Source: a virus. Taken from it: a stretch of DNA of 21,969 nt. Under the pieces are notes generated by a model. It ran no database searches. It saw only the letters and a list, made by a program, of their open reading frames with translations, and had not been told where the DNA came from. The DNA lies in IMG/VR virus record IMGVR_UViG_3300009149_000332, positions 1-21,969 of that record. One strand, 5' to 3'. Of the stretch, positions 3,358 through 9,157 are shown piece by piece; the stretch's first letter is position 1; each line of letters starts with the position of its first letter. A program made the position numbers and the translations under genes.

Positions 3358-3737
3358 TAAAATACCTCCTGCCAATAATCGACCTCTTTACCCTTTCTCG
3401 GTAAAAGTTTAAAAGTTTTCGTGTCCATCAAATCTTTCGCTTTTCTCTGCTCTAGCCATCCCTTTTCTTCAAGATATTCAAACATAATCTCATATCGAAA
3501 ATTACCATTATTATCGGCAAAAAGTTTCCATACATTCGACTTCATTTCTGAATCAGCGTCAAATACTGCTTGAGATATCACCGGATCAACGTCATGTGTT
3601 CCAAACCAATTAATACCTACTTCACTCAAAATAGCATCATAAACTACTTCTAGTATCTCGTTAACGCGATCTTCTCCATACTCTTTCGAGTATATCTGAT
3701 AATATTGATTAAACGAACCTATCATAGACTGCTCCAA
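3357..3737 (-). CDS. Hypothetical protein, 126 aa, between TerL and the tail tube gene.
   Basis: It is a complete ORF. Its start overlaps the TerL 3' end by 16 nt and its stop overlaps the tail tube start. I recognise no motif. Confidence 0.45.
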   Translation of the reverse strand: MEQSMIGSFNQYYQIYSKEYGEDRVNEILEVVYDAILSEVGINWFGTHDVDPVISQAVFDADSEMKSNVWKLFADNNGNFRYEIMFEYLEEKGWLEQRKAKDLMDTKTFKLLPRKGKEVDYWQEVF

Positions 3738-5266
3738 CCTGCTTGGTGTAGTTCGTTTATTCCTTGGCCTCCTGGTGAAAATTGTCCTGATGTTGGAGAT
3801 GATCCGATAATCGTCGGTAGTGGAGCATTTTCATTCTTCTGGAAGAAGTCATCTAGTTTAAATATACCTGGTTCTGTAATTGTATAGTTTTGAATCTTAA
3901 GCGGTTTACCTTGATCATCATACGCAACGATTTCATAATGCTGTTGACAAATCTCTTCTTGTAGAACATATAGACCCCAGACTAGAGACAATACTCTATC
4001 ATCATAAATCTGATTGCCTTGCTTAGCCTTCCAAGTGCCGTTTGGATACCGTACAAATGTTTGAAGCTCTTGAACAGTTGCAATATCGTATATTTTAACA
4101 ACCTTAAGAGTATTCATCCAATAACGCATATTCATTACACCATTATACTTGGTATTAGTATGTGAATAAATACCTTGCCGTATATCTCCGTACTTAAGAT
4201 TCGATGGATTATGACTAACTAGATTATGATAGTTGTGCTTCTCATTCAGTGAAGTTATCACCTCACCACCGCAATTGTTTCTCTCGATTAACATCGGCGG
4301 TCTACCCCAATGGTTTCCGATGCGGTTTAATACTTCTGCAAATCGTGTTGGGTGAATTGCGTTATTGTGATAGCATGCAACTTGCTCAATATGCGTTAAG
4401 TCTGTGAAGTCAAATATTTGCGCTACAGATGCTGCTCGTCCGATGCCTTCGCTAACATCAACTCCTATACCGTATATATGGCCTGCTTGAGGTTCAGCCC
4501 AAACTCTATAATGTCCATCTTCAAACGTCTGCAGAGGTAATCTGCATTGCTCTTTATAGTCTTCAAGAACAGATGCATCAATAGCAGATTCTCCTGTCTC
4601 TAAAAATACACACTCAAACTCTTGTGCAAATAATTGCTCATCGTTACCAAGAGCAGCCTTCATATCTGCAATCCACTTTTTACCGTGTCCTGGTACTTCA
4701 CTATAATGAATATTCTCTGCATGCCAAGAAATTCTACCTTCTATAGCCTCACCTCGCTGTGCTTTTGAATAAATTTCGTGGAACTTGTTACCTGTACCTT
4801 TCGGAGTACTAACAGCAAAAATCTTTGTAGTTCCTTTTCGAGATGACGAAATAACAGGAATAACTGATGCCCAAAAGTCATCAATAAGATGAGATTCAAT
4901 GTGAGCCATTTCGTCGATAATGATGCATTGATGACTTAATATACCATTTGCAAAATATGTATGAGTATCTTCAATTTCAAGAAATTCAAACACTTCCTCA
5001 TCATTTTCAAATTCATTAATCGACTTAACAACATCATTGAAAATCTTGTTTCCAACTTGTAGGTCATTTGCAAAAACATAATCAGTTTCATTAACCATTA
5101 ATTTATGCTTTGGTGTACAAATTAGTTGCTTATTAGATTGAAAAGTTAAATGAATTTTGTTCGGATTTTTACCACAGAAAACTCCTTTGAAATCTTTAAA
5201 CCCTTCTTCGGTCAAGATTTCATATTCTGTATTCTCAAATACATCAAAATTTGTTAAATCAGCCAT
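3722..5266 (-). CDS. Large terminase subunit, C-terminal gene (TerL-C). Its N-terminal 113 aa form the C-part of a split intein, followed by Walker B, the remaining ATPase domain and the nuclease domain.
   Basis: After ...FEFLEIEDTHTYFANGILSHQ comes C, then IIIDEMAHIESHLIDDFWASVIPVISSSRKGTTKIFAVSTPKGTGNKFHEIY. This aligns with T4 gp17 [47 protein letters not shown]. The ATG at 5264-5266 overlaps the upstream ORF stop (TAATG). Confidence 0.85.
   Translation of the reverse strand: MADLTNFDVFENTEYEILTEEGFKDFKGVFCGKNPNKIHLTFQSNKQLICTPKHKLMVNETDYVFANDLQVGNKIFNDVVKSINEFENDEEVFEFLEIEDTHTYFANGILSHQCIIIDEMAHIESHLIDDFWASVIPVISSSRKGTTKIFAVSTPKGTGNKFHEIYSKAQRGEAIEGRISWHAENIHYSEVPGHGKKWIADMKAALGNDEQLFAQEFECVFLETGESAIDASVLEDYKEQCRLPLQTFEDGHYRVWAEPQAGHIYGIGVDVSEGIGRAASVAQIFDFTDLTHIEQVACYHNNAIHPTRFAEVLNRIGNHWGRPPMLIERNNCGGEVITSLNEKHNYHNLVSHNPSNLKYGDIRQGIYSHTNTKYNGVMNMRYWMNTLKVVKIYDIATVQELQTFVRYPNGTWKAKQGNQIYDDRVLSLVWGLYVLQEEICQQHYEIVAYDDQGKPLKIQNYTITEPGIFKLDDFFQKNENAPLPTIIGSSPTSGQFSPGGQGINELHQAGWSSL
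4928..5266 (-). other. Split-intein C-part (IntC, 113 aa). It begins at the translational start of the TerL-C gene and carries Hint blocks B, F and G. Cys (4925-4927) is the +1 extein residue.
   Basis: Block B reads LICTPKHKLMV (TxxH). Blocks F and G read VFEFLEIEDTHTYFANGILSHQ followed by C. The terminal residue is Gln rather than Asn. Confidence 0.7.
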
Positions 5267-5748
5267 TATTGTTCTTCTATATAAAATTTAATAATTTCGC
5301 TTCTGTCTTTGACTGTGAATTGAATACCTCTTTCAACAGCTATCCGCTTAATTTTAAGTATTTCGGACATATTATCGTCATTTATAATATTTGGTTCTAT
5401 ATTTATATGATAAATATCTTTAATTTTAACACAGCCTTTTATTTGTAGAATTCCCCCCTCTACTTTACTATATTTGCTACGCAATATAATATCTTTATTA
5501 GTTTTGATAGTAAAAAGTACATCTGGATCCGACCAAGTACCACAATATAGGTATTCATCATCTATCTTTTTACTAAATGTAGATGTATAAACATAATCAC
5601 CATAATTTTTCGATCCTCTTTCTTGTGATATAACATTTCGCTCATCTTCGCTATCAACAAGATCCCAAAGTGGACAAATTTCCTCACGCATCAAAATAAG
5701 AAGAGCGTTATCTATACTTGTCTCATGGAAGCAAAATTTATTAATCAT
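5266..5748 (-). CDS. Hypothetical protein, 160 aa, encoded between the two halves of the terminase gene and the split intein.
   Basis: It has its own SD (gagagg, about 8 nt before the ATG at 5748). Its stop overlaps the TerL-C start. I see no recognisable LAGLIDADG, GIY-YIG or HNH motifs. The upstream TerL-N gene ends with two stops, TGA AAA TGA. Confidence 0.5.
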   Translation of the reverse strand: MINKFCFHETSIDNALLILMREEICPLWDLVDSEDERNVISQERGSKNYGDYVYTSTFSKKIDDEYLYCGTWSDPDVLFTIKTNKDIILRSKYSKVEGGILQIKGCVKIKDIYHINIEPNIINDDNMSEILKIKRIAVERGIQFTVKDRSEIIKFYIEEQ

Positions 5749-5778: not shown

Positions 5779-7494
5779 TCATTTTTCATCTAATTTTATA
5801 TCCAATCTATTATTAATTTTAACCCTATTAAACAATTCAGACATCTCGATGTCTTCAATTTTTCCTGTCTTTTTATTTCGAACCGTAACAATATTATCTC
5901 CAGTAATACAGTTTACAGAATCACCACGAACTGCACTACCAGTTGTAGTTGAAATAGCTATACTAGATCCGTTGCCGAAAATAACTTCAGTGCCGCCCCA
6001 TGTAGCTAGACCAGGTTTGAGCCAGTTAGGTAATTCTTCAAAAGCCATTTTAATACGGCGAAGAATCATAATAGCCGTTTTTTCTTTATTGGCTACAATA
6101 ACAACTCTTTTATTTGATTGAAAGCAAGTATACCATAAAGCATAAATGGTCATAAGAGTGGTGTTTGCACTAACAATATTAGTTTTTCCTATTGTAAATA
6201 ATTCATCTTCTGCATCCACTGTTATACATCGAACAGGTACTGATTGGATTTTAGTTATATTTTTAATATAATGGTTTACTTGTTTTATAGAAACATTACA
6301 ATTTTGTTTATCAATTTTTCGTTTAAATTTAAATACAGGAAAAGGAGAACTAAAAGTAATGCGAAACATCGGTTTACCAATTTTTGTTTGCTTTGGATTC
6401 ATGTTTTTTAAAAATACATTTTTAGTAGCATGTAATCCTAGTGATCTAACAAGTTCTAGAGCTTCATCAGCTAGTTGCTCATTGGTGTTGTAAAATACAC
6501 ATTTTTTTCCTACTGTCGATCCATCTGTATCCATTAACCCTTTTAACAGTTCTAATCTTTGTGCCTTACTGCTTCGTAAATATACTTCAGGTATATGCTT
6601 GTTACGATATACATTTAATTCCCTAAGCAATGTGATTAACCTCTTACCGTCTTTATATTTGTCCTGATTTATCCATAAAATATAATGACCATCCGGTTGT
6701 GTTATTTCTTCACGGATAATATCTGGATCAATATCAAGACACCTTCTTGCCTCTTCTACATCAAAACGAGATACACTCAAAGCTGGAGCTCTCGAAAATC
6801 CGTCACCTAACCAATAACCAAGTAGGTACGGATCAACTAAAAGATCTCGCTCTGGGTATTCAAAAGCTGGCGCACTTGGTACAGAATAATTTAATTGTGG
6901 ATATTTCTGATTAACTGTAAGCTTATTAAGAAATTCTTTTGTTGTATATATTCTACCTACTCTTTTATGACATCTATCATAATGAGATTGCGCCCACCAT
7001 CTATGATCTTCATCTGCAATTATCTTTTCACCGCTACTAAACTCAATTTCGTAACAAGTTCTGTTATACAAGATATCATGTGCACGAACAACTCTAGTAG
7101 GTTCTCCGTTAGAGCCGAATACAACATCATTGTCCTTTAGTTGACCCATTGTCGTCCAGCCTGCCGGAGTAGGTACTGGGGTATCTAGTGCAAGCGCTTT
7201 CCCAACCTGTCTCGATGCATTTACAATTACAAATCGATTACTAGTCAGTGATTTTAAAACTCGTCTTTGAGAACGATATAAATCAATTTTTCGTTTACCT
7301 TCATCCACATCAACAATAAAAAAGTAATTCTGTGCAAAATATCCGAGATCATTTTTAGATTTTTTTAGTTCCGCAATTCGCTGTGGAGTCCACTCAAACT
7401 CAGCATCAGCGCGTGGTAATCTTTTATTACGCAGATATGTTTGATTATCAGATAGCTCTACATCATCAACCATTTTTTTAGGATCTATTTTCAT
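5779..7494 (-). CDS. Large terminase subunit, N-terminal gene (TerL-N). It holds N-extein aa 1-99 with Walker A, a 345-aa intein, 83 aa of extein, and a C-terminal 43-aa split-intein N-part.
   Basis: ...FVIVNASRQVGK is then interrupted, and the extein resumes as TTLMTIYALWYTCFQSNKRVVIVANKEKTAIMILRRIKMAFEELPNWLKPGLATWGGTEVIFGNGSSIAISTTTGSAVRGDSVN. This aligns with T4 gp17 [91 protein letters not shown]. Confidence 0.85.
   Translation of the reverse strand: MKIDPKKMVDDVELSDNQTYLRNKRLPRADAEFEWTPQRIAELKKSKNDLGYFAQNYFFIVDVDEGKRKIDLYRSQRRVLKSLTSNRFVIVNASRQVGKALALDTPVPTPAGWTTMGQLKDNDVVFGSNGEPTRVVRAHDILYNRTCYEIEFSSGEKIIADEDHRWWAQSHYDRCHKRVGRIYTTKEFLNKLTVNQKYPQLNYSVPSAPAFEYPERDLLVDPYLLGYWLGDGFSRAPALSVSRFDVEEARRCLDIDPDIIREEITQPDGHYILWINQDKYKDGKRLITLLRELNVYRNKHIPEVYLRSSKAQRLELLKGLMDTDGSTVGKKCVFYNTNEQLADEALELVRSLGLHATKNVFLKNMNPKQTKIGKPMFRITFSSPFPVFKFKRKIDKQNCNVSIKQVNHYIKNITKIQSVPVRCITVDAEDELFTIGKTNIVSANTTLMTIYALWYTCFQSNKRVVIVANKEKTAIMILRRIKMAFEELPNWLKPGLATWGGTEVIFGNGSSIAISTTTGSAVRGDSVNCITGDNIVTVRNKKTGKIEDIEMSELFNRVKINNRLDIKLDEK
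5782..5910 (-). other. Split-intein N-part (IntN) at the C-terminus of TerL-N. It carries Hint block A only.
   Basis: CITGDNIVTVRNKKTGKIEDIEMSELFNRVKINNRLDIKLDEK follows the extein ...AVRGDSVN (T4: AVRGNSFAM). The pattern C..GD..V.....GKI.IEDL is block A. A stop follows before block B. Confidence 0.7.
6163..7197 (-). mobile_element. Intein (345 aa) inserted in the Walker A P-loop between GK and T. It starts with Ala, carries an internal LAGLIDADG homing endonuclease, and ends ...IVSAN with Thr at +1.
   Basis: Block A reads ALALDTPV. Block B reads GEKIIADEDHRWW, with His and Trp in the expected positions. LAGLIDADG motif 1 is LLGYWLGDGFS and motif 2 is LLKGLMDTDGST. Block F reads PVRCITVDAEDELF and block G reads NIVSAN followed by T. 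The Ala1, block-B Trp, block-F Cys and +1 Thr pattern fits class 3 inteins. Confidence 0.75.
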
Positions 7495-7981
7495 TTCTTT
7501 CTATTAACCTCGCTTTATGTCCTTGAACGTCAATATCTCTAACAGTATAATTCGGTAAATAGGGGGCTATCTGTACTATTAACTTTCCGTAAATGCGATA
7601 TAATTGTTCATTCTTTGCGATTAAGATAATTTTCTGTGGTTGCATCATTTTAATAAAGTTATAAGTTATTCCTGCTATTTTTTGTAAAACATTTAATGAG
7701 TGTTTAGTTATATTACCATATTCAGTTCTCACAGGAGCTGAAGCAACGAAATCTACTTTAAAAAAACCGGGTTCTATCTCACTAGCAACCCATATATGCG
7801 ATACATCACCACCACTATAAAAACTATATGAATATACGTCATCTCCCATCCAAGGAACATTTCCAATCGATGGAATATAATTGCCGTACTCCTTAGGATC
7901 AAACCTTTCGGATATTAGAAAAGAGTTGAAATACTTTTCAAAATTTGTTATCTTATTCATTATTGTCTTCGCTGTGTTCAT
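7478..7981 (-). CDS. Hypothetical protein, 167 aa. It sits where a small terminase subunit would be, immediately upstream of and overlapping TerL. I see no TerS-like sequence features.
   Basis: It is a complete ORF overlapping the TerL start by 17 nt. Only its position suggests a role. Confidence 0.4.
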   Translation of the reverse strand: MNTAKTIMNKITNFEKYFNSFLISERFDPKEYGNYIPSIGNVPWMGDDVYSYSFYSGGDVSHIWVASEIEPGFFKVDFVASAPVRTEYGNITKHSLNVLQKIAGITYNFIKMMQPQKIILIAKNEQLYRIYGKLIVQIAPYLPNYTVRDIDVQGHKARLIERNENRS

Positions 7982-8287: not shown

Positions 8288-9157
8288 ATGAGAGATATGT
8301 TAGCAGAACAATATGAATTAGTACTTGAGAATCAAATGAAAGGTACGGTCGACGCACCTGGAATGGCAAAGCCGGGCCAGAGTATGCTAGATAAAGATAC
8401 TAAAAAAGCATCTGGGCTAGGTGTTGAAAGTCCTGCTGCAAAGGCTGTTGGTTCTCCAAAGGAGATGGATAAGAAGTTAAATCCGGGTCACGGAAAAATT
8501 ATGAAAGAAAGGGATATGGACGAAATGTTACCAGAAAGCAGTTTTGACAAATTATTTAAAGCTACATTAATTGAAGAGGAACTCGGCGATGATGAGAGCC
8601 CACTTGAGCAGACAGGTGGAGATGAATTTAATGATGAAATGGGAGATTTCCCACCAGACGGTGAAGGTGATGATGATCTCGGTGAGGAAGTCGATGTAGC
8701 CACAGAGCTACGAATGATTATCGATCGCTTAACTGAAATTGCAGAGAAGCTCGGTGCTTTTGATGAAGAGTCAGAAGAAGAGGGTGGAGAAGGTTTCGGT
8801 GAGGATGAAATGGGCGGTGAAGGATTTGGTGAGGAAGAGCCAGTTGTTCCAGAAGCTGTAACATACGGCAAAGGCGGTGGTGGTAAAGCTGGTGGACCAG
8901 GTAAAGGTTCAGATGGCAAACTATCTGCATTCCCAGATCGCACCTCCCAGATGCAATCAAAGGGTAGCCAGAAGGTTAAGCATAGCGCTGTAACATCAAA
9001 GCAGACAGCAGCTGGTAAGGCTAGTGCTGGCGGACCAGGTAAAGGTTCAAACGGTAAGCTCGGTTCTTTCCCAGATCGTACATCACACATGCAGTCAAAA
9101 GGTAGCATGGTTGTGAAGTCGGAGATGGGTAAAGCAGGCCGAAGCGTTTTTGATTAA
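8288..9157 (+). CDS. Acidic, low-complexity protein (289 aa) with Gly/Glu-rich segments and a tandem 46-aa repeat. It may be a head scaffold, core or internal protein, but its function is unknown.
   Basis: An SD (aaggag) lies 9 nt upstream. The repeat AGGPGKGS(D/N)GKL(S/G)(A/S)FPDRTS(Q/H)MQSKGS occurs twice. GGEGFGEDEMGGEGFGEEE is also present. Antisense ORFs 8488..9108 and 8718..8960 are compositional artefacts. Confidence 0.6.
   Translation: MRDMLAEQYELVLENQMKGTVDAPGMAKPGQSMLDKDTKKASGLGVESPAAKAVGSPKEMDKKLNPGHGKIMKERDMDEMLPESSFDKLFKATLIEEELGDDESPLEQTGGDEFNDEMGDFPPDGEGDDDLGEEVDVATELRMIIDRLTEIAEKLGAFDEESEEEGGEGFGEDEMGGEGFGEEEPVVPEAVTYGKGGGGKAGGPGKGSDGKLSAFPDRTSQMQSKGSQKVKHSAVTSKQTAAGKASAGGPGKGSNGKLGSFPDRTSHMQSKGSMVVKSEMGKAGRSVFD
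8891..8968 (+). repeat. Direct repeat unit 1 (about 78 nt). Its partner is at 9029..9106, giving a 138-nt period.
   Basis: ggtggaccaggtaaaggttcagatggcaaactatctgcattcccagatcgcacctcccagatgcaatcaaagggtagc compared with ggcggaccaggtaaaggttcaaacggtaagctcggttctttcccagatcgtacatcacacatgcagtcaaaaggtagc. Confidence 0.8.
9029..9106 (+). repeat. Direct repeat unit 2 (about 78 nt). It is an imperfect copy of 8891..8968.
   Basis: It was aligned by eye with unit 1, as given there. Confidence 0.8.

Follow-up and report, generated by a model that had tools for sequence, protein, structure and literature searches.

A P-loop intein of class 3 type, recognised by homology, in the T4-type large terminase of an uncultured phage

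Introduction

Class 3 inteins are defined by the absence of an N-terminal nucleophile, by the triplet Trp(B:12)-Cys(F:4)-Thr(G:5), and by Ser, Thr or, rarely, Cys as the first residue of the C-extein (position +1) (Tori et al. 2010, PMC2807308). Most of them are located in the P-loops of ATPases, and the large terminase subunits (TerL) of phages are among their hosts (Tori et al., PMC2807308). Here, we analyzed a stretch of 21,969 nucleotides from an uncultured virus (IMG/VR record IMGVR_UViG_3300009149_000332; hereafter, the window, meaning the whole of this stretch) and identified, in the P-loop of its T4-type large terminase, a 345-amino acid (aa) intein homologous to the class 3 inteins, which carries a LAGLIDADG homing endonuclease domain and shares its host protein with a second, split intein.

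The block-F Cys is obligate for class 3 splicing (PMC2807308). In these inteins, Cys, His and Thr constitute a protease-like triad, and the hydroxyl group of G:5 bonds His B:10 (PMC7664689). In the mycobacterial intein Msm DnaBi1, the C118A substitution abolishes splicing, and Cys48 is also needed (PMC6195587). In mycobacteriophage terminases, seven intein sites have been described, including the "classic" P-loop site between Lys and Thr (Kelley et al. 2016, PMC5050341); the class 3 members among these inteins are related to the DnaB inteins, and splicing and endonuclease activity have been shown for some of them (PMC5050341).

Position and boundaries of the intein

All coordinates given here are window positions, and both the intein and its host open reading frame (ORF) are on the minus strand. 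Based on the ORF list and on a match to phrog_36964 (E = 5e-73), the N-terminal half of the large terminase is encoded by a 571-aa ORF (5779..7494), which comprises an N-extein (aa 1-99), the class 3-type intein (aa 100-444), a middle extein (aa 445-528) and the N fragment of a split intein (aa 529-571). The reverse complement of positions 6163-7197 is free of stop codons and encodes the 345 residues of the whole intein, ALALDTPVPTPAGWTTMG...KTNIVSAN, from Ala1 to Ser343-Ala344-Asn345, followed by Thr+1; these limits are fixed by intein-free homologues, and the intein is further supported by its translation, by its 895 database homologues (E <= 1e-3) and by an AlphaFold2 model. The residues ahead of the intein, ...FVIVNASRQVGK, end in NASRQVGK, where SRQVGK (7198..7215) is the N-extein part of the Walker A motif and Lys99 occupies position -1. 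The residues after it are TTLMTIYALW (TTLMTIY, 6142..6162), whose first residue, Thr+1, is the Thr of Walker A and also the predicted splicing nucleophile. At the upstream junction the DNA reads CAG GTT GGG AAA|GCG CTT GCA, so that residue 1 is an unambiguous Ala, encoded by GCG. The intein separates Lys from Thr in the Walker A motif (SRQVGK|TT) of this T4-type large terminase, its insertion site being GK|T.

Using the in-silico spliced N-terminal extein (183 aa) as the query, we found 110 homologues, in approximately 90 of which the sequence SRQxGKTT(L/I)MTIYALW is uninterrupted, with SRQxGK directly before TT. Additionally, the empty P-loop site was observed in the DNA of the relatives L002 and L003/L004. 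In the two closest intein-free relatives, with extein identities of 77% and 74%, the exact junction reads GGC AAA|ACT ACA and GGG AAG|ACT ACG, respectively. We considered and rejected a boundary moved by one residue to gain an N-terminal nucleophile; only the K|A...N|T cut gives the intein-free GKTT, and a shift in either direction destroys this consensus, which indicates that Ala1 is not a boundary artefact. When both inteins were removed in silico, the Terminase_6N domain became contiguous (profile positions 3-211 of 215, 56.8 bits), whereas before removal the C-terminal half gave only a 15.5-bit fragment of it and the N-terminal half gave no Terminase_6N match. The intein is, therefore, an in-frame insertion whose removal restores conserved and contiguous host sequence. 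These results bear out a preliminary description of this DNA, which had placed the insertion exactly at GK|T, had read the start as ALALDTPV with Ala as residue 1, and had proposed a search for empty P-loop sites in homologous TerL genes; the misassigned extein boundary that it had regarded as capable of hiding a true nucleophile was not found.

The identical 571-aa protein, together with the same 160-aa ORF that follows it and the start of the C-terminal half of the terminase, is also present in the independent assembly SRR5210834, which makes an assembly chimera unlikely. A megablast search with the terminase region returned no near-identical cultured phage, and its relatives were found only at the protein level. 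The strand opposite the intein contains only chance ORFs of 55-81 aa, and our search for Rfam families, tRNAs and meaningful repeats found none.

Similarity to class 3 inteins and signature residues

In a phmmer search against all PDB chains, the top matches of the intein were the class 3 DnaB inteins 6RIX, 6BS8 and 6RIY, with E values of ~2e-23 (best, 1.7e-23), while the best class 1 match, gp41-1, reached only E = 0.02. The first 70 residues of the intein align with 6BS8/6RIX without gaps at ~65% identity, and the second aligned segment is the block-F SVPVRC. With an E value of 1.7e-23 and 895 homologues, this resemblance is not due to chance. Judged by homology, and beyond the motifs alone, the element is a class 3-type intein; its membership of the class 3 clade is based on sequence relatedness, i.e., on the best PDB matches being class 3.

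To describe the signature residues, we counted them in the 120 best database homologues of the intein. The N-terminal HINT lobe (intein aa 1-100, 6898..7197) includes Ala1 in block A, Cys48, and the block-B residues Asp62-x-x-His65 and Trp67 (His65 codon, 7003-7005; Trp67 codon, 6997-6999). Cys48, His65 (B:10) and Trp67 (B:12) are each invariant (120/120), Asp62 is found in 118 of the 120 relatives, and position 1 is Ala in 117 and Cys in 2. The C-terminal splicing lobe (intein aa 301-345, 6163..6297), located by its alignment with the SVPVRC of 6BS8/6RIX, includes block F, PVRCITVD, with the likewise invariant Cys324 (F:4, 120/120; codon, 6226-6228), and block G, IVSAN, with SAN (residues 343-345) at 6163-6171. 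The spacing of 21 residues between Cys324 and Asn345 is that between Cys124 and Asn145 of the intein Mch DnaB1. Asn345 (G:7) is shared by 119/120 relatives, and position +1, Thr in the window, is Ser in 93 and Thr in 26. Except for G:5 and G:6, the intein has the majority residue at every one of these signature positions, +1 Thr being the state of 26/120 relatives. At G:5, the window has Ser343 and the family has Thr (117) or Ser (2); at G:6, the window has Ala344 and the family has His (112), Ser (5) or Ala (2).

The intein thus lacks Cys, Ser or Thr at position 1 and possesses Trp B:12, Cys F:4 and a hydroxylated residue, Thr, at +1. The Thr expected at G:5 is replaced by Ser343, a conservative change in which the hydroxyl is chemically retained. 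The HINT fold, the blocks A, B, F and G, the C-terminal Asn and the nucleophilic +1 residue are those of an intein. None of the generic intein profiles PF14890 (Intein_splicing), TIGR01445 and TIGR01443 matched the class 3-type intein, on which only LAGLIDADG_3 fires. The missing match was rejected as evidence against an intein, as it reflects the limits of the models.

Fold and homing endonuclease domain

The AlphaFold2 model, obtained with a 61-sequence alignment, has a mean predicted local distance difference test (pLDDT) score of 94 and a predicted template modelling (pTM) score of 0.92. In Foldseek searches against the PDB, the whole model matched PI-SceI, the yeast VMA1 intein endonuclease, with template modelling (TM) scores of 0.73-0.75; further matches were the TliVMA, PhoVMA and PI-PfuI inteins and, for the central domain, I-DmoI. 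The splicing domain matched the class 3 mini-inteins Mch and Msm DnaB1 with target-normalised TM scores of 0.85-0.88.

Based on Pfam, Foldseek and conservation, we localized the LAGLIDADG homing endonuclease domain at approximately intein aa 101-300 (6298..6897), with Pfam matches to LAGLIDADG_3 (E = 6e-7) and Hom_end (E = 3e-3). It contains motif 1, PYLLGYWLGDG (aa 123-133, 6799-6831), and motif 2, ELLKGLMDTDGS (aa 216-227, 6517-6552), as two helices that end in the catalytic residues Asp132 and Asp225, respectively, within the alpha-beta-beta-alpha-beta-beta-alpha fold of I-DmoI and PI-SceI. Among the 120 relatives, Asp132 is conserved in 116, Asp225 in 114, Lys200 in 118 and Lys294 in 120. 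The endonuclease looks intact, and we predict from the sequence and the model that it is active. Compared with P0002, the nearest relative of the intein, the endonuclease domain is 55% identical and the splicing lobes are 63-67% identical. A lower conservation of the endonuclease than of the splicing lobes is usual for such domains.

The motifs quoted in the preliminary description, i.e., DEDHRWW (with His65 and Trp67), PVRCITVD (with Cys324) and the ending IVSAN followed by Thr+1, are all present, and its two LAGLIDADG motifs, LLGYWLGDG (Asp132) and LLKGLMDTDGS (Asp225), do belong to an intact-looking endonuclease, with the fold and all four active-site residues kept. Its assignment of the class 3 signature is supported. 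Ala1, Trp67, Cys324 and Thr+1 agree with it, as does the homology to the DnaB inteins; it listed IVSAN without remarking that Ser stands in place of Thr at G:5 and that Ala replaces the penultimate His.

Distribution of the intein family

When the relatives of the window terminase are arranged by decreasing extein identity, the P-loop site is empty at 77% and 74%, occupied at 71% and 70.5%, empty at 70.3-69.7% and occupied at 68%. Such an alternation of occupied and empty sites is what homing and loss predict. The empty sites of L002 and L003 are identical to the flanks of the window intein at 29 and 26 of 40 nucleotides, respectively, and are candidate targets of the endonuclease. The intein (GC content, 0.343; GC3, 0.197) and the extein (0.353 and 0.208) are alike in base composition. 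A recent foreign acquisition, which we also considered, is therefore unsupported; the intein did not come recently from a genome of different composition.

Using tblastn, we found the intein family in 828 phage records, in 561 of them over >=80% of its length, and the alignment with PHROG 36964 ("terminase large subunit") runs through the intein without a break. The same family is inserted at GK|(S/T) in unrelated proteins, including DnaB, an IstB-like ATPase, other terminase families and dCTP deaminases, a distribution that, at the level of sequence, fits an intein family following a short local motif. In metagenomes of Chloroflexota type, the family abounds in dCTP deaminases (P0021-P0120), where it occupies the site RLEGK|SSLGRLG with 34-39% identity to the window intein. 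This host is not a P-loop ATPase, yet it carries a local GK|S motif.

A split intein in the same ATPase domain

The host terminase is of T4 type, its extein being ~31% identical to the TerL of cyanophages and of an Acinetobacter phage; a tail tube gene is located downstream of it, and T4-like capsid genes are nearby in its relatives. The second intein of this terminase is split between the two halves of the gene. Its 43-aa N fragment, CITGDNIV...KLDEK (5782..5910, minus strand), follows RGDSVN just before Walker B. Its 113-aa C fragment (4928..5266, minus strand) ends in GILSHQ, is followed by Cys+1 and the Walker B sequence CIIIDE, and forms the beginning of the ORF of the C-terminal half of the terminase (3722..5266, minus strand). 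The C fragment matches TIGR01443 (intein_Cterm) and, with E = 1.4e-7, CatC (PDB 6DSL), an engineered consensus of atypical TerL split inteins, which places it in the AceL/GOS-TerL family (PMC11766414). It ends in Gln (GILSHQ|C) and not in the usual Asn; the corresponding ends are NHQ|C in L001 and SKN|C in L003. The same N-terminal half with two inteins is present in 18 of the 19 nearest intein-bearing relatives, and the tail of P0009 starts with Leu, not Cys.

Across the relatives of the window terminase, we read at least five intein sites. At GK|T, the insertion is a class 3 cis intein or, in P0209 and P0218, an apparent split intein starting with Cys; further sites are RGxSxN|C, SLLY|C and DELAFIE|C; IFAVS|...|TPxGTGNKF carries a cis LAGLIDADG intein ending in Gln; and QEFxN|C carries a cis or a split intein. 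In the window terminase, the IFAVS and QEFxN sites are both empty (KIFAVSTPKGTGNKF and AQEFECVFLETGES, respectively). With both junctions located and Terminase_6N restored, the coexistence of a cis class-3-like and a split intein in one terminase ATPase domain, as originally proposed for this gene, is confirmed, and the number of sites in the relatives makes the accompanying remark that it is a hotspot well founded.

Additional inteins were observed in the C-terminal halves of two relatives (L001, 7702-10584; L003, 7677-10985), where a LAGLIDADG intein with a Gln end is inserted as IFAVS|C...GHQ|TPxGTGNKF. L003 also carries a mini-intein, QECN|C...VNHN|CVFLESGES, and, with one split and three cis inteins, represents the maximum of four inteins in one terminase. 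In P0209 and P0218, the gene is broken at the P-loop, reading SRQxGK|CF...IRNKKTGxIE... before a stop codon; judging from these residues, the break looks like a split intein that starts with Cys at the site of the class 3 cis intein.

Neighbouring open reading frames

A 160-aa ORF (5266-5748, minus strand) lies between the two halves of the terminase and has no Pfam, PHROG or NCBIfam family. It had no word-index homologue and only three remote relatives among 1.84 billion representatives, located elsewhere in T4-like contigs, and its single-sequence AlphaFold model (pLDDT 49) is unusable. At this position, L002 and L003 carry a gene for a GIY-YIG-like free-standing endonuclease, and L001 carries nothing. 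A new free-standing homing endonuclease is one possible identity of the ORF, and an unrelated small gene is another.

Upstream, a 167-aa ORF (7478-7981, minus strand) without a family match overlaps the terminase start by 17 nucleotides, in the position of a small terminase subunit; the terminase of L001 has no such ORF upstream. Divergent from the terminase, an acidic, Gly-rich ORF of 289 aa (8288-9157, plus strand) has an internal duplication in which GGPGKGS(D/N)GKL..FPDRTS.MQSKGS occurs twice. At its position, L001 has uncharacterised ORFs of 282 and 296 aa beside head-assembly genes, i.e., those of a prohead protease, a scaffold-like protein and the major capsid protein. The 289-aa ORF may encode a scaffold or an internal head protein.

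Discussion

Based on its homology, conserved residues and fold, we consider that the element is a class 3 intein that would splice via Cys324 and would be propagated by endonuclease-driven homing into empty P-loop alleles during co-infection, with a probability of approximately 0.88. In the proposed mechanism, the thiol of Cys324 would attack the Lys99-Ala1 peptide bond after translation, resulting in a thioester branched intermediate on Cys324. Cys324 would be activated by His65, itself positioned through the hydroxyl of Ser343, a residue that is normally Thr, and Trp67 and Asp62 would shape the site. The N-extein would then be transferred to the side chain of Thr+1, the cyclisation of Asn345 would free the intein, and an O-to-N acyl shift would rebuild the intact GKT P-loop. 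The terminase would not bind ATP until the class 3 intein had been spliced and the split intein at Walker B had joined the two gene halves in trans. In co-infections, the endonuclease would cleave terminase alleles that lack the intein, within the conserved sequence that encodes the P-loop, and repair would copy the intein in.

Several observations weigh against this proposal. Two canonical residues deviate, namely G:5 Ser and the penultimate G:6 Ala, each a state of only 2/120 relatives, and the T339A substitution made the Bethlehem DnaB intein temperature-sensitive, so a change at G:5 could matter (PMC2807308). We infer splicing, the role of Cys324 and cleavage by the endonuclease from homology, and the sequence is metagenomic, so that this exact phage is only presumed to be viable. 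The two minority residues and the origin of the sequence in a metagenomic contig would also suit an insert derived from a class 3 intein that has lost splicing activity, i.e., a decaying element or pseudogene that leaves a dead terminase allele. An inactive class 3-like intein of this kind has been documented in Arthrobacter (Arth_1007; PMC3196547), but in that pseudogene neither His B:10 nor Cys F:4 is present (PMC3196547), whereas in the window the 571-aa ORF is open, and the essential residues Cys48, His65, Trp67, Cys324, Asn345 and Thr+1 are all present. The SAN ending is shared with P0002, the intein of which is 59% identical, and five further relatives end in TSN, indicating that an essential gene, in which a non-splicing insert would be lethal, has done without the penultimate His over a long divergence. 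Moreover, the Bethlehem DnaB intein was little affected by mutation of its penultimate His (PMC2807308), intact genes surround the window intein, and its phage was sampled twice. Taken together, these observations make an inactive element very improbable.

A different splicing route is, in our opinion, slightly less probable still. In a class 2-like or other pathway, Thr+1 would attack the N-terminal junction directly, and Cys324 would have only a structural function. Such a route is used by the KlbA-type inteins with Ala1 (PMC2807308), and the chemistry of the window intein is assigned here from sequence; nevertheless, class 2 inteins do not have the Trp/Cys signature and use Cys+1, Thr+1 is ill suited to attack an amide directly, close homologues depend strictly on their block-F Cys (PMC2807308, PMC6195587), and Cys324 is invariant among the relatives counted. 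It has also to be considered whether the intein is not simply selfish and acts as a conditional switch, in which a redox-sensitive Cys48-Cys324 disulfide would delay the maturation of the terminase under oxidative stress. Both Cys residues are invariant in the family, a reversible Cys48-Cys118 disulfide blocks the splicing of Msm DnaBi1 under H2O2 (PMC6195587), and, with the intein in its P-loop, the terminase needs splicing to act as an ATPase. Nevertheless, the analogy is with Msm DnaBi1 and not with phage physiology, the need for Cys48 in splicing itself explains its conservation without regulation (PMC6195587), and the intact endonuclease and the patchy distribution in close relatives are as predicted for a selfish element. 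We regard such a switch as unlikely, and it would add to splicing and homing as the explanation of this element rather than replace them.

The nearest relative provides additional information about position 1. P0002 (L001 5872-7575) starts with Cys, encoded by TGT, and keeps Trp B:12, Cys F:4 and the S-A-N ending. P0005 likewise starts with Cys, so that natural Ala1/Cys1 variants exist on the class 3 scaffold. As a speculation to which we attach little weight, the window intein and P0002 could represent a sub-lineage with Ser at G:5, no penultimate His and an Ala/Cys switch at position 1, and the two inteins of the terminase could make the packaging motor mature in a set order or under redox control. 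If both inteins splice, the pair would be a natural experiment on how class 3 inteins move between the internal-Cys and the N-terminal-Cys routes, and would show how Asn cyclisation is helped without a penultimate His; if true, this would bear on the debate over the interconversion of class 3 and class 1 inteins (PMC7664689).

Since the class 3 splicing domain escapes the generic intein models, automated annotation would overlook the intein and mislabel the terminase; the label expected for this gene would be a 571-aa "hypothetical protein with LAGLIDADG domain". Recognising the class 3 and the split intein reconstitutes a normal T4-type terminase. Our analysis adds to the classic GK|T site a well-defined class 3 example from the environment. 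It also reveals an unusual wealth of inteins in this family of T4-like terminases, which could supply orthogonal splicing tools, one being a cis intein of class 3 and the other an atypical split intein whose N fragment is short. The current understanding of how inteins work is unchanged by the window intein.

Comparison with known systems

The mycobacterial DnaB inteins, Msm DnaBi1 of Mycobacterium smegmatis (6BS8) and Mch DnaB1 of M. chimaera (6RIX/6RIY), whose first nucleophile is the block-F Cys (PMC6195587, PMC7664689), are inserted, as is the window intein, in a P-loop after GK and before Ser/Thr. They also share the start ALAL(D/Y)TP(V/L)PTP.GWTTMG, Cys48, DxxH, Trp67 and the block-F SVPVRC. 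In contrast, they are mini-inteins without an endonuclease, are hosted by a bacterial helicase and end in T-H-N, whereas the window intein contains a LAGLIDADG domain of 200 aa, is hosted by a phage terminase and ends in S-A-N.

The mycobacteriophage inteins TerL1-a to -e are similar in their TerL ATPase host, the Lys|Thr P-loop site, the LAGLIDADG endonuclease and the occurrence of several sites per terminase family. However, their host is an actinophage terminase_1, whereas that of the window is a T4-type Terminase_6N protein of an uncultured aquatic-type myovirus. The inteins of the mycobacteriophages Omega and LittleE are only ~35% identical to that of the window, and the Omega site differs (EFK|...|T). 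Additionally, full-length matches to the family with 34-37% identity are present, unannotated, in cultured phages, namely in gp267 of Synechococcus phage B23/B3 and in the TerL of Vibrio phage 489E54-1 and of Acidovorax phage ACF1, the last of these being identified by its full-length match. B23 and 489E54-1 share with the window the GK|A...N|T P-loop site, Ala1, H-x-W and the block-F Cys, and differ from it in their T-H-N end. B23 is a T4-like phage (Kyanoviridae), in agreement with the type of the window terminase, but its terminase is not split by a second intein.

The split intein of the window resembles the AceL-TerL, GOS-TerL and Cat-TerL split inteins in its terminase host, its short N and long C fragments, and Cys+1; it differs from them in its Gln end (SHQ), where they have Asn, and in sharing the ATPase domain with a cis class 3 intein. 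Since class 3 inteins in the P-loops of terminases are documented (PMC2807308, PMC5050341), the arrangement observed in the window is not unusual. Class 3 inteins at terminase P-loops were already known from work of 2009-2016, and the window intein is a clean further example, peculiar only in the Ser and Ala residues of its block G and in its atypical split-intein partner.

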